A DNA stretch of 64,000 nt from a bacterium (lineage in GTDB: Bacteria; Acidobacteriota; Blastocatellia; HR10), in NCBI GenBank assembly GCA_041640655.1, contig JBEPZV010000001.1, positions 154,845 through 218,844 on the forward strand, read 5' to 3'. Positions within the stretch are counted from its first letter, which is position 1. Every line of letters begins with the position of its first letter. Both the position numbers and the translations under genes were made by a program. Below are positions 5,553 to 62,557 of the stretch, piece by piece. Under the pieces are notes generated by a model, which was not told the origin of the DNA, did not search any database, and worked only from the letters and a program-made list of their open reading frames with translations.

Positions 5553-6233
5553 GTGGTCGTCGCACGAGGACGCGCCAGACGACACCCCGGCGAAGAGGGG
5601 GAACGCTTCGAGGAGATCTTGAGGGCCGCCGCCGAACTCTTCTATGAGAAGGGATATCACGCGACAACGATGCAGGACGTCGCCGATCGGGTGGGGATGC
5701 TCAAGGGATCGCTCTACTACTACATCGACTCCAAAGAGGACCTGCTCTACATCACGCTCGATCAGGTCATCAAAAAGGGCGACGATTATTTCCTGCAGAA
5801 GGTCGCTTCAGCGCGCGATCCGATCGAGAAGCTGCGCCGCGCCATCGAGGCCGAGATCGAATACGTCATCCGAGATCAGGTGACCGTCGGGCTTTTCCTG
5901 CATGAGTTCGACACGCTCTCGGATCGGCGCCGCCGTCGTATCCTCGCCCGCATGCGCCGGTTCCAGAATCGCTACATCGAGATCATCCGCGAGGGACAAG
6001 CGGCGGGCGTCTTCCGCGAGCTCGATCCTCGGCTGGTGGTCTACGGGATCCTCGGCATGTGCAATTGGGTGTATCGGTGGTATCGGCCCGATCTCGGGTT
6101 CCCGCTCGAGCAGATCACCGCCGTCTTCACCCGCCTCATCCTCGACGGCATCGTGAAGCCGGACGCCAGGCCGGATTCGTCCAGAGCGCGGAGACGATCG
6201 GGGCGGACACCGAGATCGCGTCCCTCGAGATGA
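5553..6233 (+). CDS. TetR/AcrR family transcriptional regulator
   Basis: TetR helix-turn-helix region (ILRAAAELFYEKGYHATTMQDVADRVGMLKGSLYYY). GTG start at 5553 chosen because of upstream AAAGGAGGA; the ORF could begin further upstream. Confidence 0.65.
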   Translation: MVVARGRARRHPGEEGERFEEILRAAAELFYEKGYHATTMQDVADRVGMLKGSLYYYIDSKEDLLYITLDQVIKKGDDYFLQKVASARDPIEKLRRAIEAEIEYVIRDQVTVGLFLHEFDTLSDRRRRRILARMRRFQNRYIEIIREGQAAGVFRELDPRLVVYGILGMCNWVYRWYRPDLGFPLEQITAVFTRLILDGIVKPDARPDSSRARRRSGRTPRSRPSR

Positions 6234-13351: not shown

Positions 13352-14507
13352 GAGCCTCAAGGACAGAGTGGCCATCATCGGGATCGGTTGCACGAAGTTC
13401 GGCGAGCTGCACGAGAAGAGCCTTCAAGACCTGATGGTCGAGGCGAGCTTCGCCGCTTACGCGGACGCGGGGATCGAGCCCGATCGCGTGGAAGCGGCGT
13501 GGCTGGGAACGTTCTCACCGGGTTTCGGGGGAGGGAAGGCGAGCGTCACCCTGGCCGACGCGCTGCGACTCTATGGCAAGCCGATCACCCGCGTGGAGAA
13601 CTACTGCGCCACGGGGACCGATGCCTTCCGAAACGCGTGCCTGGCCGTGGCCGCCGGCGTCTACGAAGTGGCCTTGGTCGTCGGAGCGGAGAAGTTGCGA
13701 GATCGGCCCGTGCGGGGATTGCAACGCGAGGGGACGCATCCGTACTTGGAAGCGGGCTCGACCCCACCGGGACTTTTCGCCCTGGCAGCGAATCGGTATT
13801 TCCATCGCTTCGGCGGGGATCGGCGGACGTTGGCCAAGGTCGCCGTCAAGAATCATCACAACGGAGCCCTCAATCCGAAAGCCCATTTTCAGATGGAGGT
13901 GACCGAGGAGCAGGTCCTCAACGCGCCGCTCATCGCCTATCCGTTCGGTCTGTATGACTGCTGCCCCACGACAGACGGAGCCGCGGCCGTCATCATCTGT
14001 CGGGCCGATCTGGCGCGGCAGTTTCGAGACGATCCGGTCTACGTGAAGGGCATCGGATTGGCCGTGGAGACGGGATGGCCTTTCTTCGATCCCACGTTCG
14101 AGTACATCGGGTTCCCGGCGACGACGGCGGCGGCGGCCGAAGCCTATCGCATGGCGGGAATCCGCCACCCGGCGCGGGAGATCTCCGTGGCCGAAGTGCA
14201 TGATTGTTTCACGTGGACCGAGATCGCCAATTATGAGGACCTGGGCTTCTGTCGGAAGGGCGAGGGGAGGTACTTCATCGAGGAGGGACGGAGCGCGCTC
14301 ACGGGCGATCTGCCCGTGAATCCGAGCGGCGGATTGAAATCGTTCGGCCATCCGATCGGAGCCAGCGGCGTGCGCATGCTCACGGAGATCGTCCTGCAGT
14401 TGCGCGGTCAAGCCGGAGCTCGCCAGGTGAAGAACGCCGAGCTGGGACTCGTGCATAATCTGGGCGGACCCGGCTCGGTCGCCTGCGTCGTCATTCTCGG
14501 ACGGTGA
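13344..14507 (+). CDS. SCP2/nsLTP-type thiolase
   Basis: Thiolase-like (CATGTDAFRNA; active-site Cys region; C-terminal NPSGG.KSFGHPIGASG). Start overlaps upstream stop (ATGGGTGA). Confidence 0.75.
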   Translation: MGESLKDRVAIIGIGCTKFGELHEKSLQDLMVEASFAAYADAGIEPDRVEAAWLGTFSPGFGGGKASVTLADALRLYGKPITRVENYCATGTDAFRNACLAVAAGVYEVALVVGAEKLRDRPVRGLQREGTHPYLEAGSTPPGLFALAANRYFHRFGGDRRTLAKVAVKNHHNGALNPKAHFQMEVTEEQVLNAPLIAYPFGLYDCCPTTDGAAAVIICRADLARQFRDDPVYVKGIGLAVETGWPFFDPTFEYIGFPATTAAAAEAYRMAGIRHPAREISVAEVHDCFTWTEIANYEDLGFCRKGEGRYFIEEGRSALTGDLPVNPSGGLKSFGHPIGASGVRMLTEIVLQLRGQAGARQVKNAELGLVHNLGGPGSVACVVILGR

Positions 14508-14552
14508 ACATCGTTCGGGCAACCCCGCGGGGGATCCCTGAAGGAGTCGAGG

Positions 14553-15404
14553 ATGCGTATCGTCGTCTGCCTGACGCAGATTCTCGATCCGGAGATGCCG
14601 CCGAGTGAATTTCGACTGGATCCGCAACGAAAGGCGGCCGCCGAGGGGATCGGACAGCTCGTCGTCAGCATCTTCGATGAGAACGCGCTCGAGGTGGCGC
14701 TGCAGGTGCGCGAGCGCATAGCCGAGCGCGAGGGAGCACCCCACGCGATCTCTCGATCGCGTGAGGACCCCGGCCCGGTGGAGATCGTCGCGCTCACCGT
14801 CGGTCCTCCTTCGGCCGCCGACGTCCTGCGGAAGGCGCTCAGTCTGCGCGCCGATCGCGCCATTTTGATCTCCAGCGAGGGATGGCCTCCGCTGGAAGGC
14901 GCCATCGTCGCCCGCCTTCTGGCCGCCGCCGTGAGACGGCTCCATCCGGTGGACCTCGTGCTCTGCGGGCGCGAGACGGGAGATTGGCATGGGGGACAGG
15001 TCGGCGCCTTCCTGGCCGAAGCGCTCGGATGGGCGAGCGTGAGCTTCGTCTCCCGCATCGAGGTGGAGGGGGAGACCTTCCTCATGCGACGCCAATCGGA
15101 CGAAGGATGGGAGATCGTGCGCGCGAGACGACCCGCCGTGGCGACGATCACCAACGATGAGACGAACGTCCCGCGCTTGCCGAAGGTCAGAGATACGATG
15201 CTGGCCGCCCGCGCGTCGCTCCCCGTGTGGACGATCCCGGAACTGGTCGAAGATCCGAGAGAGCTGTGGCAGGCGAATGCCCTGCAGGTGCGCGAGTTGT
15301 TCATTCCGAGCAGCTCGAAGGCGTGCGAGGTGATCGAGGGGGAGACGGTTCAGGAGAAAGCCGTTCGGCTTCTCCAGGCGCTGCGCCGACGACGGATTCT
15401 CTGA
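14553..15404 (+). CDS. etfB: electron transfer flavoprotein beta subunit, carrying an in-frame 38-nt palindromic-element insertion
   Basis: EtfB family sequence (MRIVVCLTQILDP...). An extra loop GAPHAISRSREDPGP coincides with the palindromic element at 14734..14771. Confidence 0.85.
   Translation: MRIVVCLTQILDPEMPPSEFRLDPQRKAAAEGIGQLVVSIFDENALEVALQVRERIAEREGAPHAISRSREDPGPVEIVALTVGPPSAADVLRKALSLRADRAILISSEGWPPLEGAIVARLLAAAVRRLHPVDLVLCGRETGDWHGGQVGAFLAEALGWASVSFVSRIEVEGETFLMRRQSDEGWEIVRARRPAVATITNDETNVPRLPKVRDTMLAARASLPVWTIPELVEDPRELWQANALQVRELFIPSSSKACEVIEGETVQEKAVRLLQALRRRRIL
14734..14771 (+). repeat. 38-nt palindromic element copy a (GAGCA-CCCCACGCGATC-TCTC-GATCGCGTGAGG-ACCCC), inside etfB
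   Basis: Matches the consensus GGGCA CCCCACGCGATC TCCG GATCGCGTGGGG ACCCC found in four other copies; 12-bp arms. Confidence 0.8.
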
Positions 15405-15424
15405 GCTGAGAGGAGGACGTCCTC

Positions 15425-16420
15425 ATGCGCACCGTGATGGTTCTCCTGCCGACATCCCGCATCGAGCGGGCCGAGCGCGAGGCCATCGGCGCCGCGCGCG
15501 CGTTGTCGCGGGAATGGTCGGCGAACGTGCAGGTGGCCCTCATCGCCCCAACGGCGGAGGGAATCGAAGGCCTCCGAGGGAGGACGGAGGCCTCTGGAGA
15601 TGTGCGCCTGTGGATCGCCGCCCATCCGCAGCTGGCGGCGTATTCGCCCGAGCTGTATGTGAGCGCCAGCGAACAGCTCATCACACGCGCGCGACCGGAC
15701 GTGATTGTCTTCCCCAGTCGGACGATCCCGCTTGAGATCGCGCCGCGTCTCGCATACCGGATCGGGGCGGCGATGGCGACCGATGTCATCGAGCTGCGCG
15801 CCGAGGATGAGACCGTCCGCATCACGAAGCCCGTCTACGGCGGCAAGGCGCACGCGGTGTTGATGGCGCAACGGTTCCCCCTCGTCCTCTGCGTGCGCCC
15901 GCGCGCGTTCGATCCGTTTGAGGGGGAGCTGCGCGACGATGCGGCGATGCGCGTCCAGGTGACGCTCGATCCCTCGTCCGTCCGCACGCAGCTCGTCCGA
16001 CGGATTCAAGAGGACGCCGCGGCGGGAGTGTCGCTCGAAGAGGCGCGCGTCATCGTCAGCGGCGGGCGCGGCCTCGGCGGACCCGAGGGCTTCCGATTGC
16101 TCGAAGAATTGGCGCGGTGGCTCGGCGGCGCCGTCGGCGCTTCGCGCGCGGCGTGCGACGCCGGGTGGGTGCCGGCCAGCTGGCAAATCGGGCAAACGGG
16201 AAAGAAGGTCGCCCCCGATCTCTATATCGCCGTCGGGATCTCCGGAGCCAGCCAGCACATCGTCGGCATCTCCGGGGCCAAGTGCATCGTCGCCATCAAC
16301 ACGGACCCCAAAGCGCCGATCTTCACAGTGGCGGATCTCGGGATCGTCGGCGATTATCGAGCGGTCGTCCCCGCTCTGATCGCGGAGGTCAAACGGATGC
16401 GTGAGGAAGCAGAGGGATGA
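15425..16420 (+). CDS. etfA: electron transfer flavoprotein alpha subunit
   Basis: EtfA FAD-binding C-terminal motifs ([22 protein letters not shown]). Confidence 0.85.
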
Positions 16421-16458
16421 ACGCTTGAACGCGACGAGACCTTCTGGGAGGACGCGAC

Positions 16459-17256
16459 ATGAGTGAGCCGACGGTGCAGCTTGTCGTGGACGATGGCGTG
16501 GCCACGGTGACGCTCAACCGGCCCGAGGCGTTGAACGCTATTGACGCGACGTTGGCGGCCGAGTTGCGCGAGGTCTTTCGAACGTTGGGAGCGCGAGAGG
16601 ATGTTCGGGCCGTGATCCTGACGGGAGCGGGACGGGCGTTCTCGGCGGGTGCGGATTTGAAGTACCTTCACCGGAGATTGGAGGAGGGCGCTTCGGCCGA
16701 ACAGTTGCTGGACGAGTTGCTCGGGCCGTTGAACGATACAATTCGACTCATTCGGGGCATGCCGAAGATCATCATCGCGGCCATTCACGGGGTCGCCAGC
16801 GGTGGCGGCTGTAACCTCGCGCTGGCGTGCGATTATCGGGTGGCGGCTGTGGGGACGCGGTTCAACCAGGCGTTCGTGCGACTCGGGATCGCTCCGGATT
16901 GCGGAGGGACGTTCATTGTGCCGCGCCTGATCGGCTGGACGAAGGCGTTCGAATGGATGGTGAGTGGAGCGTTGATCGAGGCTGAGGAGGCGGCCGCCTG
17001 GGGACTCGTGCATCGCGTCGTCCCCGAGGATCGCGTGCTCGAAGAGGCGCGCGCCTTCGCGCGCTCCGTGTGCGAAGGGCCGACACGAGCGATCGTGACC
17101 ATCAAACACTTGCTCGCGATGAGCCTCGGAGCCTCCCTGGATGAGCAGCTGGAGCGGGAGCGGCAGCTCGTGGGCTTGCTCGCCGGCACCGAGGATTTCC
17201 GCGAAGGCGTGCGCGCCTTCCTCGAGAAGCGCCCCCCGCGCTTCTCCGGGCGATGA
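16459..17256 (+). CDS. enoyl-CoA hydratase/isomerase (crotonase family)
   Basis: Crotonase motifs (LNRPEALNA, GAGRAFSAGADL, GGGCNLALACD). Confidence 0.85.
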   Translation: MSEPTVQLVVDDGVATVTLNRPEALNAIDATLAAELREVFRTLGAREDVRAVILTGAGRAFSAGADLKYLHRRLEEGASAEQLLDELLGPLNDTIRLIRGMPKIIIAAIHGVASGGGCNLALACDYRVAAVGTRFNQAFVRLGIAPDCGGTFIVPRLIGWTKAFEWMVSGALIEAEEAAAWGLVHRVVPEDRVLEEARAFARSVCEGPTRAIVTIKHLLAMSLGASLDEQLERERQLVGLLAGTEDFREGVRAFLEKRPPRFSGR

Positions 17257-17276
17257 CGCGTCGCCCCGATCCTCCC

Positions 17277-17314
17277 GGGGTCCCCACGCGATCCGGAGAT
17301 CGCGTGGGGTGCCC
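17277..17314 (-). repeat. 38-nt palindromic element copy b (intergenic, reverse orientation)
   Basis: GGGGTCCCCACGCGATCCGGAGATCGCGTGGGGTGCCC is the exact reverse complement of copy d; perfect 12-bp arms with a 4-nt spacer. Confidence 0.85.
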
Positions 17315-17335
17315 GAACTCCCCGAACGGAGGACT

Positions 17336-18292
17336 ATGTCGAGCGCATTCGAATTCGTTCCCCCCGGTCTCGATCTCGCCGATGATGACATCCATCCCAT
17401 CGGTCCGGAACCCTGGTGGCGCGAGGCCTGGTACTTCGAATTCTTCGACCCGGCTTCGCGCGTTCAGTTCCAGGTCTATCAAGGCATCTTCCCGAACGCC
17501 GGTCGAGGGGATCTGACCTGCTACGTGTTCGTGGAGGGACGCCTGCGATACGAGCTGATGAAGATGGACTTCGCGATTCCGTCCGACATCGGGCGGGAGC
17601 GCTTGTGCTTCGGCCCCTTGAAATTAGAGATGCTCGAGCCCTTCGTCCGATGGCGCTTGCGCTACGATAGCCCGAGGATGCAGTGCGATCTCTCCTTCCG
17701 CGCGCTCCATCGCGCCTTCAGTTGGGCGGAGACCCGGCTCTGGATGGAAGACGCTCCGGTCGGGCAGCAGAGCCGCCATTTCGATCAGGTGGGATGGTAC
17801 GAGGGATGGCTGCATCTGGATGACGAGCAGCTCTCCATCTCGGCGATCGGGATGCGCGATCGGATGTGGGGGTGGGGAGGGCGCGCTCTCTGGCGCGGGT
17901 ATCTGGTCCTGTGGGCGCCCTTCTCCGAAGCCTTCGTCGTCAATGTGGCGGCCATGAACTTCGCCGACGGTCGACGCCACCTCTGCGGATATCTCCATCG
18001 CGAGGGCGAACGCACCTATCTCGACTCCGCGCGCCTGACCATCACCTGGAGCGAGCAGCGATGGAAGTCGGTCGAACGTGTGCACGCGCAGCTCACCGAT
18101 CGGCGCGGGCGGTCGCTCGCGCTCTCGGCCCGACCGCTCGGCATCATTGATACATCGCATCATTGGCCGCACCGATTCGATCACCTCCTCTTCTCCATCG
18201 GCGAATATGAGTGCCAGGGGATGACCGGCTACGGATGCCTGACGTGGAGCTTCGTCACGGCGGAGGAGAAGATGCGCGCCATCGAGTTCTGA
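17336..18292 (+). CDS. hypothetical protein, possibly CrtC/AttH-like (lipocalin-like hydratase family)
   Basis: ATG 17336 after GGAGG; Trp-rich N-terminal motif PEPWWREAWYFEFFD resembles the EWWY signature of CrtC/AttH family proteins. Weak by-eye assignment. Confidence 0.35.
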   Translation: MSSAFEFVPPGLDLADDDIHPIGPEPWWREAWYFEFFDPASRVQFQVYQGIFPNAGRGDLTCYVFVEGRLRYELMKMDFAIPSDIGRERLCFGPLKLEMLEPFVRWRLRYDSPRMQCDLSFRALHRAFSWAETRLWMEDAPVGQQSRHFDQVGWYEGWLHLDDEQLSISAIGMRDRMWGWGGRALWRGYLVLWAPFSEAFVVNVAAMNFADGRRHLCGYLHREGERTYLDSARLTITWSEQRWKSVERVHAQLTDRRGRSLALSARPLGIIDTSHHWPHRFDHLLFSIGEYECQGMTGYGCLTWSFVTAEEKMRAIEF

Positions 18293-18316
18293 GAGGCGAA
18301 GCTCGGAGACGTGGCC

Positions 18317-19528
18317 ATGAAGTCGACCGACCTCACCGGGATCCTCCCGCGATCTCTCGATCGCGTGGCGTGCCTGAACGCGCTGCTCCATCGGTTCGGG
18401 GAGAGCGTCCGTCACTTCTTCCGCGCCGAGCAACGCTCGCACCTGTTCTCCCCCCTCTTTCATCTCCCCGGGCGATTGATCGCGGGGAGCTATTGCTACT
18501 ACGAGCACCTGGTGCCCTTGTTGCGACAGGTGGCGCGACAGATGCCGCCGGAAGCCCTCGCGCATCGGGTGAAGCGACTCGGGGCGCGACCCAACGAGAT
18601 CAACGCCAATTCTCTGCTGCTCGGGTATCTGAACGGGCGGGAGCAGCGGCGGCTGCTCGGCCATCGCGTGGCAGATGATCCGGAGGAGATCGCCTTCCTC
18701 CTGGACTTCTGGGCGCGCTTCCTCGCCGCCTATCGCGCCGATGGTCGGCTCTTGCCGGAGGAGAGCGGATTCGTTCTGCCGGTGCTCGAAGCGCGAGCGC
18801 TCGAAGTGCTCCTGCCGGAACTCCATCCGGAACCGGAGCACGCACGACGCCAGCGAGGTCCCCATGTGATCGGGAGATCGCGTGGGGTGCCCGAGCGGAT
18901 GCGTCGCGCCCTGGCCACGCTCGAGCTCTTCGCCTTCGTCTTCAACGGCGAGGCGCGCGTCGGCCTCTTTCACCACGGGCCCTATCCCCGACCCGACGGC
19001 ACGTGCGTGCTCGTCAAGGAGCTGGTGGGGTTGCAGGACGATTTCTATTCCTGGGCGGAGGAGTCCGTGCGACTCCCCGTGGCCCATGTGGCCTGCCTCT
19101 TGCTCGTGAAGGACGTCGAAGTGAGAATCGGTTTATTCGGATCGCTCCGGACGGAGCCCCGGGAGTACGCTCAGAACGTCGTGGCCTGTGGCCTCTTCAC
19201 CGCCACGGGGGAAGACGTTCGTCCTCTCACGCTCGAGGAGCTGGAGGAGATCGCCGCGCACGCGGCTGAGGCGCAGATGCGCCTCTATCGCCACTTCCTC
19301 ACATGGGATGATCGGCGTCGCATCGCCTATGGAGCGGAGCTCTACGGGAACCTGCTGCGCGTCTTCGGCGATCAGGCGGGACTCGGGCCGGATTTCCATC
19401 GGGAGATCCGAGAGCGCTTCCGGGAGAGCACGGACCGACATCTACAAGCCATACTCGCTGGCGAGCCTCCGGCCATCCTGCGGCATATCGCGGAGACGGC
19501 GGGAGAGATCTACAGCCCCCTCGCATGA
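18317..19528 (+). CDS. conserved hypothetical protein (paralog P1), carries an in-frame palindromic-element insertion
   Basis: About 400 aa, tandem paralog of 19541..20770 (shared blocks ATLEL.AF, GLF.HGPY, LYGNLL/LYLFAN). Insertion RGPHVIGRSRGVP maps to element copy c. Confidence 0.5.
   Translation: MKSTDLTGILPRSLDRVACLNALLHRFGESVRHFFRAEQRSHLFSPLFHLPGRLIAGSYCYYEHLVPLLRQVARQMPPEALAHRVKRLGARPNEINANSLLLGYLNGREQRRLLGHRVADDPEEIAFLLDFWARFLAAYRADGRLLPEESGFVLPVLEARALEVLLPELHPEPEHARRQRGPHVIGRSRGVPERMRRALATLELFAFVFNGEARVGLFHHGPYPRPDGTCVLVKELVGLQDDFYSWAEESVRLPVAHVACLLLVKDVEVRIGLFGSLRTEPREYAQNVVACGLFTATGEDVRPLTLEELEEIAAHAAEAQMRLYRHFLTWDDRRRIAYGAELYGNLLRVFGDQAGLGPDFHREIRERFRESTDRHLQAILAGEPPAILRHIAETAGEIYSPLA
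18855..18892 (-). repeat. 38-nt palindromic element copy c (inside P1 coding sequence, slightly degenerate)
   Basis: GAGGTCCCCATGTGATCGGGAGATCGCGTGGGGTGCCC; left arm carries 2 substitutions. Confidence 0.8.
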
Positions 19529-19540
19529 AGACCGGGTCGG

Positions 19541-20770
19541 ATGAGGCGCATGACCCTCGAGGAGATCAATCGCCACATCCGGCTGATCGCGGAACAGCTG
19601 AAGGCGTTCATGCGCTCGGAGCAACGCGCGCTCCTGCGATCGGCGCTTTTTGACGTCCCCCGCCGCTCCTCGCTCGGATGGGAATGCCTCTACCGCACGG
19701 CCTATCCGCTGCTGGCGGACCTCACGTCGGTCGTCACGCCTGAGGAGATCGGACGCCGGATGAAGCGCGTGTGCGCGCGCCCGAATTTCCTCACGCTGAG
19801 CATTCTGATCTGCTGCTACCTCGGGGGACGCCAGCAGCGGATCCTCGATCTCGGCGTGCGACCGGGAGAGCCCTTCCCCGAGGATGATCCCGAGCAGATC
19901 GGCTTCGTCCTCGACTTCTGGTGGCGCGTCTGCCGCACCTATCGCGAGGATGGTGCCCTCTTGCCGGAAGAGCGAGGAGGGACGATGCCGATCCTGCCGG
20001 CCGGAACGATCGCTCGACTCCGCGCGCTGCTGGTCGAGACGGATCCGCTCACGGTGAAACGCCTTCGTCGTCTGGCGGCGACGCTGGAGCTGTACGCGTT
20101 CATCCTGCACGGGGAGCAACGCGATGGCCTCTTCGCGCACGGCCCGTACGCGCTGCAGGAGCGGGCGGGCACCCCACGCGATCTCCGGATCGCGTGGGGA
20201 CCCCGGGAGGTGCTCGTCATTCGCGAGTTCACCGACCTGCAGAACAGTTATCTCCCCTGGGCGCAGACGCGCGCGCGGAACCTCTACCCGAATCTGGCGC
20301 TCGCGCTCCAGCTTCGGGACGTGACGGCTCAGTTCGATCTCTTCGGAGGGGTGCGATTCGATCCCCCGGAATATGCTGATCGCGTTCGCGCCGTCGCGTT
20401 GGTGACCGTGGCCGACAATGGGGAGATCCGAGCCGTCCCTTTCGAGGAGATCGAGGAGATCGAACGCCGCGCGGCCGACGCCCAGATGGAGCTGTATCAA
20501 CGCGCGCTCTGCTGGTCGCCGCGCTTCAAGATCGAATACGGCCTCTACCTGTTCGCGAACCACGTGAAGGCGTTCTTCGATCTGGCGGGGGTGGAGGCGG
20601 GCGAGCGCATTCGTCGGGCGTTCGAAGAGGCCGCCGCTCCGTTCCTGCAGCGGTTGCTCGCCGATGCCGAACCACCATTCATCTGGCGGTTCATGGCGAC
20701 GACAGAAGGCGATTTCTTCTATCCGATCTCCGCGCAGATGCCCGAACGTGAGGGAGGAGAGGGGCGATGA
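19541..20770 (+). CDS. conserved hypothetical protein (paralog P2), carries an in-frame palindromic-element insertion
   Basis: Paralog of P1. Insertion GTPRDLRIAWGPRE (copy d) lies at a site where P1 has no insertion. Confidence 0.5.
   Translation: MRRMTLEEINRHIRLIAEQLKAFMRSEQRALLRSALFDVPRRSSLGWECLYRTAYPLLADLTSVVTPEEIGRRMKRVCARPNFLTLSILICCYLGGRQQRILDLGVRPGEPFPEDDPEQIGFVLDFWWRVCRTYREDGALLPEERGGTMPILPAGTIARLRALLVETDPLTVKRLRRLAATLELYAFILHGEQRDGLFAHGPYALQERAGTPRDLRIAWGPREVLVIREFTDLQNSYLPWAQTRARNLYPNLALALQLRDVTAQFDLFGGVRFDPPEYADRVRAVALVTVADNGEIRAVPFEEIEEIERRAADAQMELYQRALCWSPRFKIEYGLYLFANHVKAFFDLAGVEAGERIRRAFEEAAAPFLQRLLADAEPPFIWRFMATTEGDFFYPISAQMPEREGGEGR
20167..20204 (+). repeat. 38-nt palindromic element copy d (inside P2 coding sequence)
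   Basis: GGGCACCCCACGCGATCTCCGGATCGCGTGGGGACCCC; perfect 12-bp inverted arms. Confidence 0.85.
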
Positions 20771-22923
20771 GAGAGGAGAGCCTCTTGATGGTTCACCAGC
20801 AGGAGCCGCTTGGTCAGAGCGAGCCCGCTCGGGAATACTCCTGCGCTGTGGATACGGGGGGGACGTTCACCGACTGCGTCGTCGGCGATTCGGAGGGGAA
20901 TCTGGTCTTCGCCAAGAGCCCCTCGACGCCGCACGATTTTTCGGCGGGCTTCTTCGCCGCACTCGCCCTGGCGGCGGAGCAGCTTGGGCTCACGCTCACC
21001 GAACTGATGGCGCGCACGCGACGGCTCATGCACGGGACGACGGTGGGCACCAACGCCATGGTGGAGCTCAAAGGGGCGCGCGTGGGGTTGATCACGACGC
21101 GGGGGCATGGGGATGCCATCCTCATCATGCGCTCGGTGGGCCGCTCGGCGGGATTGCCGATCGAGCGGTTGCTGCATGTCTCCCGTCATCAGAAACCCCG
21201 GCCCCTCGTCCCCCGCCACCTCATTCGCGAGGTGAGCGAACGCGTGGACTGGCGCGGCGAGGTCATCGTGCCTCTGAATCGAGAAGAGGCGCGTCGCGCC
21301 ATCGAGGAGTTGCTGGAGCAGAAGGTCGAGGCCATCGCCATCGCCTTCCTCTGGGGATTCGTGAATCCCATCCACGAGCGCGAGGTTCGCCGCATGGTCG
21401 AGGAGATAGCGCCCGACCTCTTCGTCACCTGCGCGCACGAGTTGATCGCGAAGCCGGGCGAGTATGAGCGGACGGCGGCGACCGTGATCAATTGTTTCAT
21501 CGGGCCGAAGACGACGCAGTACATCCGCCGGGTGGAAGAGCGGGCTCGCGCGCTCGGCTGCACGGCTCCCCTCCTCATCATGCAAGCATCAGGTGGCGTC
21601 GCGCCGGCCCGGGAGATCCTGCGCGCGCCGTTGTTCACCATCGGCTCGGGGCCGGCAGGGGGCTTGATGGGATGCCAGTTCCTGGCCGAGACCCTCGGAC
21701 ATCCCCACGTCATCGCCACGGACATGGGGGGGACGAGCTTCGACGTCGGCCTCATCGTGGACGGGATGCCGCTGTCGGCGTCCGAGACCACACTCGAGCA
21801 GTACACCTTCTTCATGCCTCGCTTGGACATCCTCTCCATCGGCGCGGGCGGAGGATCCATCATCTGGATCGATGAGCGGAGCGGAACCCTGAAAGTCGGT
21901 CCGGAATCAGCGGGGGCAGACCCGGGACCCGCCTGCTACGGACGCGGAGGCACACGACCCACGGTGACCGATGCGGACCTCATCCTCGGCTATTACAATC
22001 CGGAGTTCTTCCTGGGGGGGAGGCTGACGCTCAATCCTGAAGCGGCTCACCACGCGATGCGCACGGTCGCCGACCCCCTCGGGTTGGACATCACCGAGGC
22101 GGCCGACGGAGCCACGCGGATCGTTGAGATGCAGATGGCCGATCTCATCCGGCAGATGACCATCCAGCGGGGATACGATCCGCGCGATTTCGTCATCTAC
22201 GCCTACGGCGGAGCCGCCGGCGCCCATGCGGCTGTCTACGCGCGGGAGTTGGGATGCCGCACGGTCGTCATCCCGCGCGGAGTCCTGGCCGCCACCTGGT
22301 CGGCCTTCGGGATCCTCTCGACGGATGTCCAGCACGTCTTCGAGAGATCGGAGCTGCTCATCGCACCCCTGGATGCGACGCGCGTCACGGAGATCTTCCT
22401 CGAGCTGGAAGAGCGAGCCCGCCGACAATTGTGCGAGGAGGGGGTGGCCGAGGATCAGATCCTCCTGCGCCGCTTCGCGGAGATGAAGTTCCGACTGCAG
22501 ATCCATCGCGTCGAGATCCCCGTCCCCGGTGGGATTCTGACCGATCAGGACATGCGCGATCTGGAGCAGGCATTCGTACAAAAGTACGAGACGCTCTATG
22601 GACGCGGATCGGCATTCACGGCGGCGGGCATGGAGATCGGCCTGCTGCGCGTGGTGGCGCTCGGGCGCATCGCTCGCGGGCCGTTGAAGCAGCTCTCCAC
22701 CGAGCACCGCAGCGGATGGACGCCCGTCGGACGGCGCCAGGTCTACTGGCGGGAACTCGGACGACGGATTCAAACGCCCATCTTCTCCGGGGAAGGGATC
22801 CCCCCTGAGACATCTCTGGAGGGTCCGGCGATCGTCGAACTGCCCGTGACGACCATCGTCGTCCGCCCGGGCGACCGCCTCACCACCGATGCATATGGGA
22901 ATTTCATCCTCACCCTCCCCTGA
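20767..22923 (+). CDS. hydantoinase A / acetone-carboxylase beta-like subunit (HyuA family)
   Basis: 718 aa; N-terminal AVDTGGTFTDCVV and ASKHD-superfamily ATPase motifs of hydantoinase A/oxoprolinase. Confidence 0.8.
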   Translation: MREESLLMVHQQEPLGQSEPAREYSCAVDTGGTFTDCVVGDSEGNLVFAKSPSTPHDFSAGFFAALALAAEQLGLTLTELMARTRRLMHGTTVGTNAMVELKGARVGLITTRGHGDAILIMRSVGRSAGLPIERLLHVSRHQKPRPLVPRHLIREVSERVDWRGEVIVPLNREEARRAIEELLEQKVEAIAIAFLWGFVNPIHEREVRRMVEEIAPDLFVTCAHELIAKPGEYERTAATVINCFIGPKTTQYIRRVEERARALGCTAPLLIMQASGGVAPAREILRAPLFTIGSGPAGGLMGCQFLAETLGHPHVIATDMGGTSFDVGLIVDGMPLSASETTLEQYTFFMPRLDILSIGAGGGSIIWIDERSGTLKVGPESAGADPGPACYGRGGTRPTVTDADLILGYYNPEFFLGGRLTLNPEAAHHAMRTVADPLGLDITEAADGATRIVEMQMADLIRQMTIQRGYDPRDFVIYAYGGAAGAHAAVYARELGCRTVVIPRGVLAATWSAFGILSTDVQHVFERSELLIAPLDATRVTEIFLELEERARRQLCEEGVAEDQILLRRFAEMKFRLQIHRVEIPVPGGILTDQDMRDLEQAFVQKYETLYGRGSAFTAAGMEIGLLRVVALGRIARGPLKQLSTEHRSGWTPVGRRQVYWRELGRRIQTPIFSGEGIPPETSLEGPAIVELPVTTIVVRPGDRLTTDAYGNFILTLP

Positions 22924-27120: not shown

Positions 27121-28371
27121 ATGGCCTTCACCATGAAGGATCTCCACGATTTGATTCGGATCTTGGAGAAGCATCCGGAGTGGCGCACGGAACTGCGGCG
27201 GCTCCTTCTGACCGATCAGCTGCTGGAGCTGCCCGTCATCGTTCGCGAGTTGGCCGAAGCACAGCGACGAACGGAGGAACGCGTGGAGGCGTTGGCCGAG
27301 GCGCAGCGGCGGACGGAAGAACAGGTGCGGGCCTTGACGCAGCAGGTGCAGGCCTTGGCCGAGGCGCAACGGCGGACGGAGGAGCGGGTCAGTCGGGTGG
27401 AGGAAGAGCTGGCCAAGTTGGCCGAAGCGCAACGGCGGACGGAAGAACAGGTGCGGGCCTTGACGCAGCAGGTGCAGGCCTTGGCCGAGGCGCAACAGCG
27501 GACGGAGGAGCGGGTCAGTCGGGTGGAGGAAGAGCTGGCCAAGTTGGCCGAAGCGCAACGGCGGACGGAAGAACAGGTGCGGGCCTTGACGCAGCAGGTG
27601 CAGGCCTTGGCCGAGGCGCAACAGCGGACGGAGGAGCGGGTCAGTCGGGTGGAGGAAGAGCTGGCCAAGTTGGCCGAAGCGCAACGGCGGACGGAAGAAC
27701 AGGTCCGGGCCTTGACCGAGGCGCAGCGACGAACGGAAGAACAGGTGCGAGCCTTGACTGAAGCGCAGCGGCGGACGGAGGAGCAGGTGCAAGCCTTGAC
27801 CGAAGCGCAGCGGCGGATCGAACAGCAAGTCGCCGATCTGGTGGCCGCTCAACAGCGCACCGAGCGCACCTTGCAACGCCTCCTCGAATGGCAACAGGGC
27901 GAAGCGGGACGGCGCGAGGGCGAGCGATACGAGCGGCGCATCGTGGTGCGCGCGCCCAACCTGTTCTTCGGTGGCGAGGGCGGTGCACCCGGGGAGCCGG
28001 ATGTGCGTCGTCAACTCAGCCGGTGGCTTCACCCGTTCTATCGAGAGGGTCGAGCCCCGGATCCCCCCGCCGATCCTCTCCTGGCCGACCTCATTTGGTG
28101 GAAAGGAGAGGAAGTGTTCGTCGTGGAGGTGTCGCAGAAAGTGGACCCTCAGGACATCCACCGCGCCCGTCAACGAGCCGATACCTTGCGCGAAGCGGGC
28201 GTGAACGCCACACCGGCTGTGATCGGCGAGGAGTGGGCGACGCCGGAGTCACAGGCGCTGGCCCAACAGGAATCGGTGGAATGGTTGGTCGGCGGAGGCC
28301 TTTCCCAGGGGTTCCTGCGCTTCCGCCGCCTGTCAGCCGAGACGCTGGAAAATCCCCCACGCGAAGGATGA
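27121..28371 (+). CDS. coiled-coil repeat protein (paralog A) with C-terminal putative PD-(D/E)xK-like domain
   Basis: N-terminal conserved block [22 protein letters not shown], then repeats of AEAQRRTEE(R/Q)V..., C-terminal FVVEVSQK block; ribosome-binding site GGGAGG. Confidence 0.6.
   Translation: MAFTMKDLHDLIRILEKHPEWRTELRRLLLTDQLLELPVIVRELAEAQRRTEERVEALAEAQRRTEEQVRALTQQVQALAEAQRRTEERVSRVEEELAKLAEAQRRTEEQVRALTQQVQALAEAQQRTEERVSRVEEELAKLAEAQRRTEEQVRALTQQVQALAEAQQRTEERVSRVEEELAKLAEAQRRTEEQVRALTEAQRRTEEQVRALTEAQRRTEEQVQALTEAQRRIEQQVADLVAAQQRTERTLQRLLEWQQGEAGRREGERYERRIVVRAPNLFFGGEGGAPGEPDVRRQLSRWLHPFYREGRAPDPPADPLLADLIWWKGEEVFVVEVSQKVDPQDIHRARQRADTLREAGVNATPAVIGEEWATPESQALAQQESVEWLVGGGLSQGFLRFRRLSAETLENPPREG
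27292..27810 (+). repeat. intragenic tandem repeat: 126-nt unit x3 followed by about 42-nt units x3
   Basis: Near-identical nucleotide units gccgaggcgcaacggcggacggaggagcgggtcagtcgggtggaggaagagctggccaagttg... Confidence 0.8.
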
Positions 28372-58156: not shown

Positions 58157-58805
58157 GGCGCTTCCTCCGTTCGCCGAGCTCACCCACATTGTGCCACGAG
58201 TAGCGGTGTTTGTGAACTGAGCAGGCGAACCGCTGTCGGTGTGCGCCGGATGCGAATCGGAGACGACGCGAACGGACCGAAGGAGGGACACCCTGTTGTG
58301 AGAACGGCGCAGCCAGAATCCGGGAGCGTCAATGGCGGATACTTCGAGCTTGCCGAACTTCGAGATCCTCCGCGAGCGGCTGGCTCGGGAACTGATCCTC
58401 TGCCTCAGTCTGGACCATTTGACGCTCTGGACTGCCTGAGAGGGGGATCGCGAGCGGTGGAGGGGCCAGCTCGTGGCTGAACTGCGCACCGATGACTTGT
58501 CGTGATGGATGCGGAGCTGGCACGTGTGAAGAAGAGAACCGCAAGCGACATCGGGTGATCAATGGAGGGGGAGCGGAGCCTGGGGAGAGGTGCTCGGTCT
58601 CAGGAAGCCCATTGAGTCCGATAATTCGACGAGGACCGAGCGTCTGGCGAGGGCTCGGTCGTCGTTGTTTTGTTTGTTTGCGGTGTCCGCTTCCACGCCA
58701 TTTCATGTGAAGGAGGCGTGGCTTATCCCGGGCGTGTTTCGGCGCTTGAGGCGTGTGGCCTCGTCGTGTATAGTGTTGGTGATTGGGCGGAGGTCATGTG
58801 GCACT

Positions 58806-60002
58806 ATGGCTTTTGAGGTGGACGATTATCTGGATCTGATTCGACTGCTGCAGGAGCATCCGGAGTGGCGGGCAGAGCTGCGCCGTCTGCTGCTGACGGA
58901 GGAGCTGCTGGCGCTACCGGAGCTGGTCCGTGATCTGGTCCACGCCCAGCGGCAGACGCAAGAACACCTGGCGGCGTTGGCCGAGGCGCAACGGCGGATC
59001 GAACAACAGGTGGAGGCGTTGACGCAACAGGTGCAGGCCTTGGCCGAGGCACAACGGCGGACGGAGGAGCGGGTCAGTCGGGTGGAGGAAGAGCTGGCCA
59101 AGCTGGCCGAAGCGCAACGGCGGACGGAGGAGCGGGTCAGTCGGGTGGAGGAAGAACTGGTCAAGCTGGCCGAGGCACAACGGCGGACGGAGGAGCGGGT
59201 CAGTCGGGTGGAGGAAGAACTGGTCAAGCTGGCCGAGGCACAACGGCGGACGGAGGAGCGGGTCAGTCGGGTGGAGGAAGAGCTGGCCAAGCTGGCCGAG
59301 GCACAACGGCGGACAGAAGAGCGGGTCAGTCGGGTGGAGGAAGAGCTGGCCAAGCTGGCCGAGGCACAACGGCGGACGGAGGAGCGGGTCAGTCGGGTGG
59401 AGGAAGAACTGGTCAAGCTGGCCGAGGCACAACGGCGGACGGAGGAAGAGGTGCGTGCTCTGGCCGAGGCCCAGCGCCGGACCGAGCAGCGTGTTGGCCA
59501 TCTGGAAGAAGCGCTGCAGGTCCTGATCGAGAGCCACAAACGCTTGACGGATGTGGTGGGCGATCTCAGGGGGCGCGTGTTGGAACAGACCTACCGCGAC
59601 CGGGCCGGCGCATACTTCGGTCCGTTGCTGCAGCGGCTCCGGGTCGTGGACCCGTATGCGCTGGAGGAGGTGTTGCGCGTCCATCTCACGGCGGACGAGT
59701 TTTACGATCTGCTGCGCGTAGACCTGCTCGTTTGTGGGCAGCCGCGGTTGCGGCCGGAGATGATGGAGGTCTGGCTGGTGGTGGAGATCTCGGCCGTCGT
59801 GGATCAGGGTGATGTCGAGCGCGCCCAACGGCGGGCCAAACACTTGCGCCGAGCCGGCTATCGGGCGATTCCGATGGTGGCTGGGGAGCGCGTGACGTCG
59901 GGCGCAGAGGACGAGGTCCGCCGGCACCGCGTGGCGGTCTTGCAGGATGGGAGCGTGTCCTTCTGGGAGGAAGCCCTGGAGGCGTGGGCGGGCAGCGCCT
60001 GA
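58806..60002 (+). CDS. coiled-coil repeat protein (paralog B) with C-terminal putative PD-(D/E)xK-like domain
   Basis: Same N-terminal block as paralog A ([22 protein letters not shown]); 21-aa repeats [18 protein letters not shown](A/V)KL; C-terminal VVEISAVVD block. Confidence 0.6.
59040..59417 (+). repeat. intragenic tandem repeat, 63-nt unit x6
   Basis: Nearly identical 63-nt units (ctggccgaggcacaacggcggacggaggagcgggtcagtcgggtggaggaagaactggtcaag). Confidence 0.85.
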
Positions 60003-60154
60003 GGAGCCGATGGTGTGTCGTTGTCCCTTCCTTCTGTGCGAGGAGCCCGTCCCCGGTTCGTGGCAGCCCGCTGCCTGCCCACGAGTGAGGACCGCGCCGT
60101 CCGTGGGTCGGTGGGATTCACCGAGGCCGGAGTCAAGCGGTGCGCTGTGCTGCT

Positions 60155-60192
60155 GGGCACCCCGCGCAATCTCCCGATCACGTGGGAACCCC
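60155..60192 (+). repeat. 38-nt palindromic element copy e (intergenic, degenerate)
   Basis: GGGCACCCCGCGCAATCTCCCGATCACGTGGGAACCCC; about 6 substitutions relative to consensus. Confidence 0.65.
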
Positions 60193-60310
60193 GTAGGGTC
60201 GAGGATCGCCTGAATGCGCAGGCGGTGCGGCACGCCTTCAGGACGATCAACCGGGGGCTACTCGGCCGGCCCCGAGCCAACGCCTCACCTGTCCTGGAGA
60301 GAAGCACATC

Positions 60311-62557
60311 ATGAAACGCTCCTTCACTCGTGCCATCTTGGTGTTGGTGGTGATCCTGGTTTCCGTTCAGGAGGGAGTGGCCGGGCAAAGCCATCCGGCG
60401 GATTCCATGCCTTCCCCGGTGCGCATCGCCACCGCGCGGCGGCTCACGGCGGAGATCACGCTGGATGGCCGGCTCGATGAACCGATCTGGAACGAGATCG
60501 AGCCGATCACCGATTTCACCCAGACGGAACCCGACGAAGGCCAACCGGCAACCGAACGAACCGAAGTTCGGATCTTTTACGATCGCAAGAAGCTCTATTT
60601 CGGCTTTCGCTGCTTCGACTCGGAGCCGAGTCGAATCGTGGCTCGCCTCGATGCTCATGATGCCCGCACCTTCTCCGACAGTGTGGAGATTTTGCTCGAC
60701 ACGTTTCATGATCGTCGCACGGGCTATTTTTTCAGCGTCAATGCTCGCGGCGTTCAATTCGACGCCATTGTGTCGGAGACAACTGGAGGCGGCTCCGGCT
60801 TTGGCCTGTACGATGGGACGTGGGATGGACTGTGGGAGAGCGCGGCGACGATTGACGAATTCGGCTGGACGGCGGAAATCGCCATCCCGTTCAAGATCCT
60901 CCGATTTCCTCGCACATCGCCGCAGACCTGGGGGCTCAATCTCGGCCGGGTAATTGTGAGAAAGAACGAAACCGTGCGCTGGTATCCGGTGGCTCGGTTC
61001 GATGCGGTGATGAAGCCGTCGAAGTCCGGCGTCCTTCGAGGACTCGACGACATTGAGCCCGGACGCGATCTGGAGATCATTCCGTTCACCCTCCAGCCGG
61101 GGCGCTTTCGCACGACGGTTCCCACCCTTTCGGGCTATCATCCCACCGCCGGCGTGGACGTGCGCTATGGTCTGACGGCCAACCTGAAGGCGAACCTGAC
61201 CGTCAATCCCGATTTCGCCCAGACCGAAGCGGACGAGATCAATATCACGCTCTCCCGGTTCGAGCTGTTTTTTCCGGAAAAGCGCGCGTTTTTCGTCGAA
61301 GGGGCGAATTTTTTCCGCACGCCGCTTCGCCTCTTCTTCACCCGACGGGTGGGCCTGCGGGTGCCCGACGGATCGGAGCAGCGGATCGCCGCCGGAGCCA
61401 AGATCACCGGCAAGATCGGGCGATACAGTCTGGGTCTGCTGGAAGCCCGCACCCGCGATCAATTTTTCCTCGATCCCAAATCGGGACAACGGCGCGTGAG
61501 TCCGGGAGCCAATTTCTTCGTCCTGCGCCTGCAGCGCGACATCTTCGAGAAATCCGCGCTCGGATTCATCACGGTGAATCGGGATCAGCCGGGGAGCGAT
61601 TTTTCTCACTCGGTGCGCGCGCATGGGATTGATCTGTCGCTCGCCCGAGGACGACATGTCACCTTTTCCTCGCAGGTGGCCGTGAGTCAAAATCCCGGCG
61701 TGCGGGCGAGTCTGTGGCAGCAGGCCGGCGCCACGGCCGAGTTCCGCTATGATTCCGATCAATTCGAATACCAAGTTAAGGCGAAATATCTTGGCCGCGA
61801 CTTCGATGTCGGCGGCATCGGCTTTGAGCCCGAGACGGGGCGGGTGAGCGGGCAGATGAGTTTCACCTACAAGCCGTTTCTCAATCGCTTCGGCATCCGG
61901 CAGATTTTCCTGGAGCCCAACTACGATCACGTCGCTTTGGTGACGGGCGAGCTCGATGACTCGGGCGCCGATCTGCGCCTGCGCGTGCAATTGAAGAATT
62001 TCTGGTCGGTGCGGGCCGTCTATTCCTACGACCGGGTTCGATTCAACGAGTTCGTGAACCAAGCGGCGCTCGATCGGATGAGAGTCTACATCATGCCGCG
62101 CGTCATTCTGGGGGTGACGACCAATGAGAATCGGTCGGTTTCCCTGAGCCTTCAAGTCGTGCGGCGAAAGTTCGTGGACTTTCGTGACAACTACTACGGT
62201 CGTCTCTGGTTTTACGAAGTGGGGTTGAATGCCCGGCTGGCCGGCCGCACGAAGCTCGAACTGCGGGGCCTGCTCTTCCGCGAGTCTTTCATGAATGGGA
62301 AGCTGGAGGAGAATCGAAGTTTGATCCTCGCCCGCCTCGGCTATCAGTTCACGCCCAAGCTGCGCGCTCGATGGCTCGCCCAGTTCAACAACGACAATCG
62401 CCGCAATCAATTCAACCTCAACTTTCTGCTCTCTTACGATTTCACCGCCCGCAGCGCCCTGGCCATCGGCTACAACACGGAGACGATCTCGCCCGAGTCG
62501 CCTTTTCGCCTCGGACGGGAATTCTTCGTGAAATTCTCCTATGTGTTGGCCTTTTGA
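60311..62557 (+). CDS. DUF5916-like outer-membrane-associated protein with N-terminal CBM9-like domain
   Basis: Signal peptide; 748 aa; beta-rich; resembles DUF5916-family proteins of Acidobacteria/Bacteroidetes. Confidence 0.5.
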   Translation: MKRSFTRAILVLVVILVSVQEGVAGQSHPADSMPSPVRIATARRLTAEITLDGRLDEPIWNEIEPITDFTQTEPDEGQPATERTEVRIFYDRKKLYFGFRCFDSEPSRIVARLDAHDARTFSDSVEILLDTFHDRRTGYFFSVNARGVQFDAIVSETTGGGSGFGLYDGTWDGLWESAATIDEFGWTAEIAIPFKILRFPRTSPQTWGLNLGRVIVRKNETVRWYPVARFDAVMKPSKSGVLRGLDDIEPGRDLEIIPFTLQPGRFRTTVPTLSGYHPTAGVDVRYGLTANLKANLTVNPDFAQTEADEINITLSRFELFFPEKRAFFVEGANFFRTPLRLFFTRRVGLRVPDGSEQRIAAGAKITGKIGRYSLGLLEARTRDQFFLDPKSGQRRVSPGANFFVLRLQRDIFEKSALGFITVNRDQPGSDFSHSVRAHGIDLSLARGRHVTFSSQVAVSQNPGVRASLWQQAGATAEFRYDSDQFEYQVKAKYLGRDFDVGGIGFEPETGRVSGQMSFTYKPFLNRFGIRQIFLEPNYDHVALVTGELDDSGADLRLRVQLKNFWSVRAVYSYDRVRFNEFVNQAALDRMRVYIMPRVILGVTTNENRSVSLSLQVVRRKFVDFRDNYYGRLWFYEVGLNARLAGRTKLELRGLLFRESFMNGKLEENRSLILARLGYQFTPKLRARWLAQFNNDNRRNQFNLNFLLSYDFTARSALAIGYNTETISPESPFRLGREFFVKFSYVLAF

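Follow-up and report, generated by a model that had tools for sequence, protein, structure and literature searches.

A 40-nt palindromic element in etfB of a Blastocatellia bacterium: a probable in-frame insertion tolerated as an extra protein loop

The etfB gene, encoding the beta (FixA) subunit of an electron transfer flavoprotein (ETF), very probably carries a short mobile palindrome that was inserted in frame and is tolerated as an extra loop in a functional protein. The gene belongs to an acidobacterium of the GTDB lineage HR10 (Acidobacteriota, Blastocatellia) and lies in a 64,000-nt stretch of contig JBEPZV010000001.1 (assembly GCA_041640655.1, positions 154,845 to 218,844 of the forward strand), referred to here as the window; the coordinates of its features are collected in Table 1. 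A preliminary description of this DNA had proposed that an intact etfB contains a loop of 13-15 residues, encoded exactly by a palindromic repeat copy at 14734..14771. The open reading frame (ORF), the extra loop and its origin in a repeat copy are all confirmed, with two refinements: the loop comprises exactly 14 residues (42 nt), and the proposed limits deviate by 1-3 nt from the copy as delimited here (14733..14772).

The record at this single site is unusually clear, with empty, filled and decayed alleles preserved in close relatives and independent insertions in the same protein loop. The full 14-residue segment (EtfB residues 61-74, GAPHAISRSREDPG) is found in none of 19 aligned orthologs. 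At the empty site, a 93%-identical ortholog (P0003, locus L001) reads GAGCGCGAG directly followed by CCGGTGGAG; the window carries GGAGCAC-CCCACGCGATCTCTCGATCGCGTGAGGA-CCCCGGC between flanks of the L001 type. A third state occurs in a 97%-identical ortholog (P0002, represented by four assemblies, L002-L005), which has 15 nt at this position, GGGGCGC-T-CCCCGGC. Both element termini are kept in this stub, and a single base replaces the 28-nt hairpin core, a net in-frame loss of 27 nt. Orthologs of 47%-83% identity are all empty with the exception of the P0006 lineage, so that the lineage-specificity anticipated in the preliminary description is borne out. The filled allele is identical in three further independent assemblies (L006-L008) that differ in source (NCBI, JGI and Logan) and is therefore not an assembly artefact. 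The simplest history suggested by these sequences would place a single insertion before the window and P0002 lineages separated, with the core deleted later in P0002.

The P0006 lineage, whose EtfB is 78% identical, has an extra loop of seven residues at the same place. The preliminary description had held that such a loop in another lineage, encoded by unrelated DNA, would speak against an origin from the repeat. The DNA is instead a 21-nt relic of the same family, GCATCCGAAGATCGCGTGACC, of which a 16-nt stretch matches family copies exactly, and the finding thus strengthens the reading that it might have undermined. As the relic is offset by 2-3 nt from the insertion point of the window and is read in another frame, it represents an independent insertion in the same EtfB loop, and its sequence supports the tolerance of this loop to insertions. 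The peptides encoded by the stub and the relic are unlike each other (GALPG and ASEDRVT). Another protein, P0231 (286 aa), was considered as a less decayed allele of this second insertion and rejected; its extra residues form a C-terminal extension.

The inserted sequence belongs to a sharply bounded repeat family. When 71 distinct copies, drawn from the window and from related loci, are combined in a conservation profile, they define a 40-nt unit, CGGGCA-CCCCACGCGATC-NNNN-GATCGCGTGGGG-ACCCCG, whose information content drops to background just outside the 40 nt and within the 4-nt loop. Intact copies fold into a hairpin of 16 bp whose stem is interrupted by a 2x2 internal loop and closed by a free loop of 4 nt (approximately -35 kcal/mol, z about -5). 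When up to three mismatches are allowed, the 22-nt core is matched five times in the window, compared with 0.02 expected, and none of 100 shuffles reaches five; a repeat finder independently returns a six-copy family (D4) in the same DNA. All 38 of the 38 nt of the etfB copy can be aligned to other family copies, at 86-92% identity. The element is thus a short imperfect palindrome present in many copies, as repetitive extragenic palindromic (REP) sequences are, with six in 64 kb, 71-122 distinct copies collected and more than 100 unrelated loci occupied. Its consensus can be read in all six frames without a stop codon, a property shared by 77% of 122 distinct copies (compared with 16% of random 42-mers from the window), and the G-run and C-run at its ends encode Gly/Pro-rich caps (G-x-P ... 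G-x-P). Rfam yields no match at E values up to 1 over positions 14000-21000, the exact repeat string occurs in no indexed paper, and a literature search returned no paper on REP-like repeats in Blastocatellia or on the HR08 and HR10 bins. The repeat family and its host lineage appear undescribed, while the behaviour of palindromes inserted in frame is already known from Rickettsia and a few other bacteria.

The host gene is a well-supported member of the ETF family. Its ORF is preceded by a GGAG ribosome-binding site, and PF01012 is present on 120 of the 120 homologs listed for its product. In a phmmer search of the PDB, EtfB matches the ETF beta chains 6fah_B (the best, E 3e-30), 7koe_A, 4kpu_B, 1efp_B and 1efv_B, and its AlphaFold model (mean predicted local distance difference test score, pLDDT, of 83.4) superposes on solved ETF beta chains with template modelling (TM) scores of 0.64-0.70. 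The nearest solved relatives are electron-bifurcating ETFs (CarE/6fah, FixA/7koe and 4kpu), not those of the canonical human or Paracoccus type. The gene is paired with an intact etfA that starts 21 nt downstream, and both belong to one cluster devoted to fatty-acid and CoA metabolism.

Judged by its substitutions, etfB is under purifying selection. Between the window and the stub lineage, the ratio of nonsynonymous to synonymous substitution rates (dN/dS) is 0.157 (8 nonsynonymous versus 17 synonymous changes), and because both lineages descend from an insertion-bearing ancestor, this value measures selection since the insertion. All other comparisons give 0.11-0.17, and the invariant positions of ETF-beta are all kept in the alignment with the 19 orthologs. 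The preliminary description had seen here an essential redox partner of the acyl-CoA dehydrogenases that tolerates a peptide derived from a selfish element; tolerance is upheld by this selection, and calling the gene essential goes beyond the evidence.

Mapping onto ETF structures, which had been suggested at the outset, places the insert in a helix-to-strand connecting loop that solved ETFs do not have. In the AlphaFold model it lies between helix 40-59 and strand 77-84, with a pLDDT of 60 for the block versus 85-93 for its neighbours, and in HMMER alignments to 6fah_B and 7koe_A it stands opposite a gap between the helix end ...ALVIKD and the strand EVIVMTMGPP. The length of this loop differs from one ETF to another. 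Connections that run from helix to strand in Rossmann-like alpha/beta domains are located at the edge of the sheet opposite the nucleotide site. The modelled loop is therefore probably peripheral and away from the cofactor site, a position that would account for the tolerance of the insertion. Tryptic peptides predicted across the insert junctions are EGAPHAISR and SREDPGPVEIVALTVGPPSAADVLR.

Taken as a sequence of events, a non-autonomous mobile element of 40 nt would have entered etfB before the window lineage parted from its 97%-identical sister. The insertion would have added 42 nt, or 14 codons, and with no stop in any of the six frames and with Gly/Pro caps at both ends it would form a self-contained extra loop, joining helix and strand of the Rossmann-like nucleotide-binding domain while the gene stays functional. 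In coding DNA, the element would then decay only through in-frame deletions that shed the hairpin, as exemplified by the 15-nt stub, the 21-nt relic and a 15-nt deletion in an ortholog of another copy in the window (copy e).

Insertion in frame is a habit of the family rather than a peculiarity of etfB. In the related genomes HR08 and HR10, Pfam confirms as in-frame hosts an M61 peptidase, whose catalytic domain precedes the element; a PNPOx-like protein, in which the copy falls within the domain match; and two proteins with several copies each, of the TPR/peptidase-MA (four copies) and BatA-VWA (three to four copies) kinds. Three copies occupy an 801-aa ORF without a Pfam match. The oligonucleotide/oligosaccharide-binding (OB) fold region of a DnaE-like DNA polymerase III alpha subunit (TKRGDRFAIFTLEDQYGSLKVLVWPE) is flanked by two in-frame copies 363 nt apart, and this bracket is conserved in five metagenome loci (L094:6642-7041, L105:3409-3808, L113, L122 and L124) with at least two sequence variants. 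The same inverted pair had been considered as a composite transposon, an interpretation rejected once the intervening DNA was recognised as the OB-fold region. In two homologs of ORF 18311..19528 of the window, P0127 and P0128, copies are found in adjacent pairs at still different positions.

The intragenic share was assessed in 72 non-redundant copies with an approximate classifier based on the codon-position GC periodicity of the flanks; an earlier ORF classifier using a threshold on third-position GC was dropped as too permissive, since antisense frames pass it. Under the strict call, which misses some Pfam-validated cases, 18 of the 72 copies (25%) are intragenic and in frame, and about 31 (43%) if any phase-consistent spanning ORF is counted. 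The majority, on these approximated gene calls, is not confidently intragenic; REPs are predominantly extragenic and as a rule lie shortly downstream of genes. All three reading frames are used, giving rise to three peptide classes, G-A/S-PHAI-x-RSRG-x-P, GTPRD-x-x-IAWGPR and GHPTRS-x-DRVGTP.

Where an empty site is known, the gain is exactly 42 nt in three of three intragenic cases (etfB, ORF 18311..19528 and an HR08-specific copy at the 5' end of a hydantoinase ORF), whereas the two dated intergenic gains measure 49 and 44 nt. An intrinsic 42-nt footprint (40 + 2) is rejected on the strength of these intergenic lengths. Preservation of the frame is therefore attributable to selection and not to design, and this contrast shows the filtering for frame directly. 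The deletions and relics produced by intragenic decay (27, 15 and 21 nt) are likewise all multiples of three.

Table 1. Element copies and associated genes in the 64,000-nt window
Feature	Position	Strand	Description
42-nt in-frame insertion	14733..14774	+	Codons 61-74 (GAPHAISRSREDPG) of etfB; 40-nt element plus 2 nt (GC); filled versus empty site
etfB (ETF beta/FixA subunit)	14553..15404	+	283 aa, ATG start; intact host gene
etfA (ETF alpha subunit)	15425..16420	+	Partner gene; PF01012 and PF00766 (on identical locus L006); no element copy in the window
Copy a	14733..14772	+	In etfB; hairpin core 14742..14763; partly decayed, RNA hairpin -22.4 kcal/mol
Copy b	17276..17315	-	Intergenic, 19 nt past the enoyl-CoA hydratase stop (17256); intact hairpin, -35.7 kcal/mol
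Copy c	18337..18376	-	5' end of ORF 18311..19528; decayed
Copy d	18854..18893	-	In frame in ORF 18311..19528, peptide GPHVIGRSRGVPE; 42-nt gain
Copy e	20166..20205	+	In frame in ORF 19541..20770, peptide GTPRDLRIAWGPRE; intact hairpin, -34.8 kcal/mol
Copy f	60154..60193	+	Intergenic, between ORF 58590..60002 and ORF 60311..62557; decayed
ORF 18311..19528	18311..19528	+	Host of copies c and d; conserved hypothetical, no Pfam domain; paralog of ORF 19541..20770
ORF 19541..20770	19541..20770	+	Host of copy e; paralog of ORF 18311..19528

Several observations weigh against a mobile palindrome that enters genes and leaves them functional. Retained activity of EtfB is argued from sequence conservation only, and surface exposure of the loop from secondary-structure topology and the low pLDDT of a model of EtfB by itself. 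Insertions are not always harmless, as an etfA frame is broken by a family copy in locus L089. Freedom from stops in six frames, once regarded as strong evidence of adaptation, has been downgraded, as the 77% of stop-free copies compares with about 40% for random sequences whose GC content is likewise 79%; stop-freeness helps, yet is partly a by-product of this GC content. As for mobility, no HUH tyrosine transposase was detected in the 1.05 Mb of sampled DNA, which covers part of the genomes, and a fixed target-site duplication is rejected on the basis of five dated gains. All three intragenic gains have AG ahead of the element, with a perfect repeat of it on the other side in one, and the consensus CGGGCACCCCACGCGATCNNNNGATCGCGTGGGGACCCCG lacks the GTAG or CGTC tag that marks the ends of REPs.

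The broken frame belongs to the organism that also holds the EtfB relic. In L089:5850-6300 (JGI 3300005858, Ga0079995_1059259), a copy at 6042-6078 and a partial second copy inside etfA shift the reading frame, and the gene caller splits the gene into ORFs of 82 and 286 aa. The gene may truly be disrupted or split, or the repeat may have caused an assembly error.

It is improbable that the etfB copy is kept as something useful, either as an RNA hairpin serving as a processing, stability or translation-pausing signal within the operon or as a loop offering a new interaction surface. Such a role could explain why four assemblies from different samples share one identical filled allele and why the same loop was struck twice independently, and REPs are known as RNA elements (PMC3733652). 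The sister lineage, however, has lost the hairpin core and kept the gene, and the etfB stem itself is already weakened (-22 versus -35 kcal/mol in intact copies). No common peptide is conserved between stub and relic, and copies elsewhere decay without compensatory changes in the stem.

A similarly improbable alternative is that the insertion inactivated etfB, leaving a young pseudogene that has not yet acquired stops while another ETF paralog supplies the function. In its favour, the case for a working etfB is built on sequence, a strong hairpin (-22 kcal/mol) would lie inside the mRNA, and a copy does interrupt the etfA frame in L089. This alternative is difficult to reconcile with the dN/dS of 0.157 accumulated in two descendants of an insertion-bearing ancestor, with a stub made by an in-frame deletion of 27 nt, or with the retention of all invariant ETF-beta positions and an intact downstream etfA. 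Although loop length varies among ETFs, the idea that the segment is an ancestral EtfB loop lost in relatives, a coincidental similarity or an assembly artefact is effectively refuted by 18 orthologs (47% to 93% identity) without the full segment, by the end-to-end match to a family scattered over unrelated loci and by the recurrence of one allele in NCBI, JGI and Logan assemblies.

With in-frame insertion of a mobile palindrome as the preferred reading, the next issue is how the element moves. The best guess is a trans-acting HUH tyrosine transposase of the REP-associated tyrosine transposase (RAYT) or TIRYT type that would recognise a single-stranded hairpin; among the options this kind of mobiliser is the likeliest, although it is held only tentatively, at somewhat less than an even chance. 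Recognition of a single-stranded hairpin is proposed because the stems are conserved, the loop is free and a few variable extra nucleotides are carried along. The transposase search combined tblastn with E. coli YafM, a scan for the HUH...Y motif and a hidden Markov model (HMM) built from 14 RAYT/TIRYT sequences (PMC3733652 Additional file 5). The extra flank at the five dated gains amounts to 2, 2, 2, 4 and 9 nt, and only one of these gains shows a direct repeat that is perfect. Flank repeats read AGCG/AG at the remaining intragenic site (site 3), AG/GG at the HR08 site and AG/GC at etfB, and nothing clear is visible at the two intergenic sites. As neither tag, consistent duplication nor transposase has been found, the mobilisation step is a conjecture.

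The family extends beyond the window but appears concentrated in a few lineages. An exact-core scan covering one genome per species, with copies validated by their flanks, detected multiple copies in 'Bacterium HR08', 'Bacterium HR10' and a high-GC metagenome-assembled genome (MAG) labelled Pseudomonadota bacterium SAR270 (three copies), and one in a Thermoflexus MAG. About 60 other single exact-core matches have unrelated flanks and are regarded as chance palindromes. The sampled HR08 contigs contain at least 10 exact-core copies, and genomes of the HR08/HR10 type hold dozens. Parts of the window are matched at 89-93% identity by contigs of HR08 and HR10, and both genomes show lineage-specific gains where the window site is empty. 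GTDB ranks HR10 as an order within Blastocatellia, with the thermophilic GAL08 group as a relative (PMC8787282). One homolog is also labelled Blastocatellia, which agrees with placing the window in this clade. A metagenome scan added 53 loci from a handful of metagenomes.

The copies in SAR270 (L069:2270-2900, L082:1350-1980 and L073:6280-6900; GC 68-71%) and Thermoflexus sp. (L074:7805-7841) share the same 40-nt consensus including its flanks. In SAR270, the hairpin forms the centre of a larger palindromic unit of about 150-200 nt with outer inverted repeats, GCCGATTTTGGCCGC and GCGGCCAAAATCGGC, resembling a miniature inverted-repeat transposable element (MITE). Mis-binned contigs of the Blastocatellia clade were rejected as an explanation for these copies, given a GC content of 68-71% versus 61.6% and no other nucleotide similarity. 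The presence of the element in unrelated high-GC genomes suggests either horizontal spread or a shared recognition module. A bolder proposal, offered as doubtful, holds that the family is built for life in genes, with a sequence stop-free in six frames, Gly/Pro ends that would close a loop whatever the frame and orientation, and a stem sheddable by in-frame deletion. It would then act as a natural loop-insertion mutagen of the thermophilic Blastocatellia proteome, reaching essential genes such as dnaE and repeatedly the same EtfB loop, moved by something other than a classical RAYT; its occurrence in the Thermoflexus and 'Pseudomonadota' MAGs would imply that the element or the enzyme recognising it has spread horizontally.

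Within the window, the remaining copies illustrate the same range of states. Locus L001, which is 88.5% identical, lacks copy b and has an empty site in its place; this copy accounts for the 49-nt gain. Copy d has an empty site in the 96%-identical ortholog P0121 (L085). Copy e is missing from all aligned homologs, and L085 has the same copy minus 15 nt of the core, in frame. At the position of copy e (window 20150-20215), HR08 (L023:230-290) has a segment of similar length, GACGAAGAGGCTCCAACGGGTCGTCGCCCCGGGGGGATGCC, with no clear similarity to the element; this could represent an oppositely oriented copy after heavy decay, or else a variable loop with no relation to the family. The right arm of copy c covers the spot at which distant orthologs have their ATG GAA CGT (MER) start. 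In the window and in L085, ORF 18311..19528 must start either at an upstream ATG or GTG, which would give it an N-terminus encoded by the element, or at a GTG inside copy c.

Copies b and e match perfectly (100%) along 45 nt, a stretch that exceeds the consensus by 5 nt, and such identity past the ends points to very recent copying within 3 kb. Five of the six copies in the window fall inside 5.5 kb (14733-20205) within the one fatty-acid/CoA-metabolism cluster, with a single copy in the other 58 kb, and the HR08 locus L076 has eight copies in 7.2 kb. This strong clustering is consistent with local hopping. Several metagenome contigs (L002-L008) end at or within an element copy; the 46.8-kb Logan contig L006, for instance, stops inside copy b at window position 17300, and the repeat is therefore an assembly breakpoint. 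Of practical importance, copies of the family break metagenome assemblies and mislead gene callers with regard to contig ends, start sites and frames. The window also contains two 63-nt tandem-repeat arrays (27121-27841 and 58806-59544) of 7-8 units that are up to 97% identical; these encode 21-residue coiled-coil-like repeats in ORFs such as 58590..60002 and are unrelated to the palindromic element.

Among known systems, Rickettsia palindromic elements (RPEs) offer the closest parallel in behaviour, an analogy that the preliminary description had drawn and that proves apt, as the same family occurs in frame in many other genes. As far as the accounts of Ogata et al. (2000) in PMC10969869 and PMC3733652 go, RPEs are palindromic selfish repeats found in frame in functional genes, with nearly half of the copies intragenic in some families. 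The present family likewise inserts in frame in unrelated, apparently functional genes (25-43% of copies) and encodes family-specific peptides at positions judged compatible with the fold. It is set apart from RPEs by size, with 40 nt against about 100-150 bp for the RPE-1 type, and by host, since RPEs inhabit AT-rich obligate intracellular Alphaproteobacteria and the hosts here are free-living, high-GC, thermophilic Blastocatellia; a relationship in sequence between the two is not to be expected.

REPs are closer in form. Intragenic members of the GTAG and CGTC superfamilies encode 8-30 residues in host genes that include dnaE and other replication and repair genes (Di Nocera et al. 2013, PMC3733652); the REP hosts in Additional file 3 of that study include no ETF gene. 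Like REPs, the elements described here are imperfect palindromes in the 20-40-nt range that occur as singles and adjacent pairs, and N-terminal copies can move apparent start sites. They differ in lacking the GTAG/CGTC tag, in an intragenic share that appears much higher and in having no RAYT found nearby.

The terminal inverted repeats (TIRs) of TIRYT tyrosine transposase genes, which are best defined in Acidobacteria, share a GGGGWSAS motif (PMC3733652). They come from the same phylum, and some TIR families are self-complementary, moderately abundant repeats. The arms of the element, GGGGACCC and GGGGTGCC, fit this motif at seven of eight positions just inside each end, the motif being compared by its text description. 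The match is imperfect, and the HMM built from the PMC3733652 alignment detected no TIRYT gene beside the sampled copies; the resemblance is accordingly a lead. MITEs are also non-autonomous, hairpin-forming and able to create in-frame fusions (PMC10969869), but they measure 70-300 bp or more and have distinct TIRs and a fixed target-site duplication, whereas the present element is a single 40-nt hairpin with a variable flank.

On these grounds, the family is filed as an undescribed REP-like family of thermophilic Blastocatellia with an unusually high intragenic share. It provides a way to track down the enzyme responsible for mobilising untagged REP-like hairpins, and a natural map of insertion-tolerant loops in thermophile proteins such as EtfB, the DnaE-like polymerase and peptidases. 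The colonisation of genes in frame by palindromes, mostly discussed for Rickettsia and for scattered intragenic REPs, is thereby extended to free-living, high-GC Acidobacteria of hot springs.

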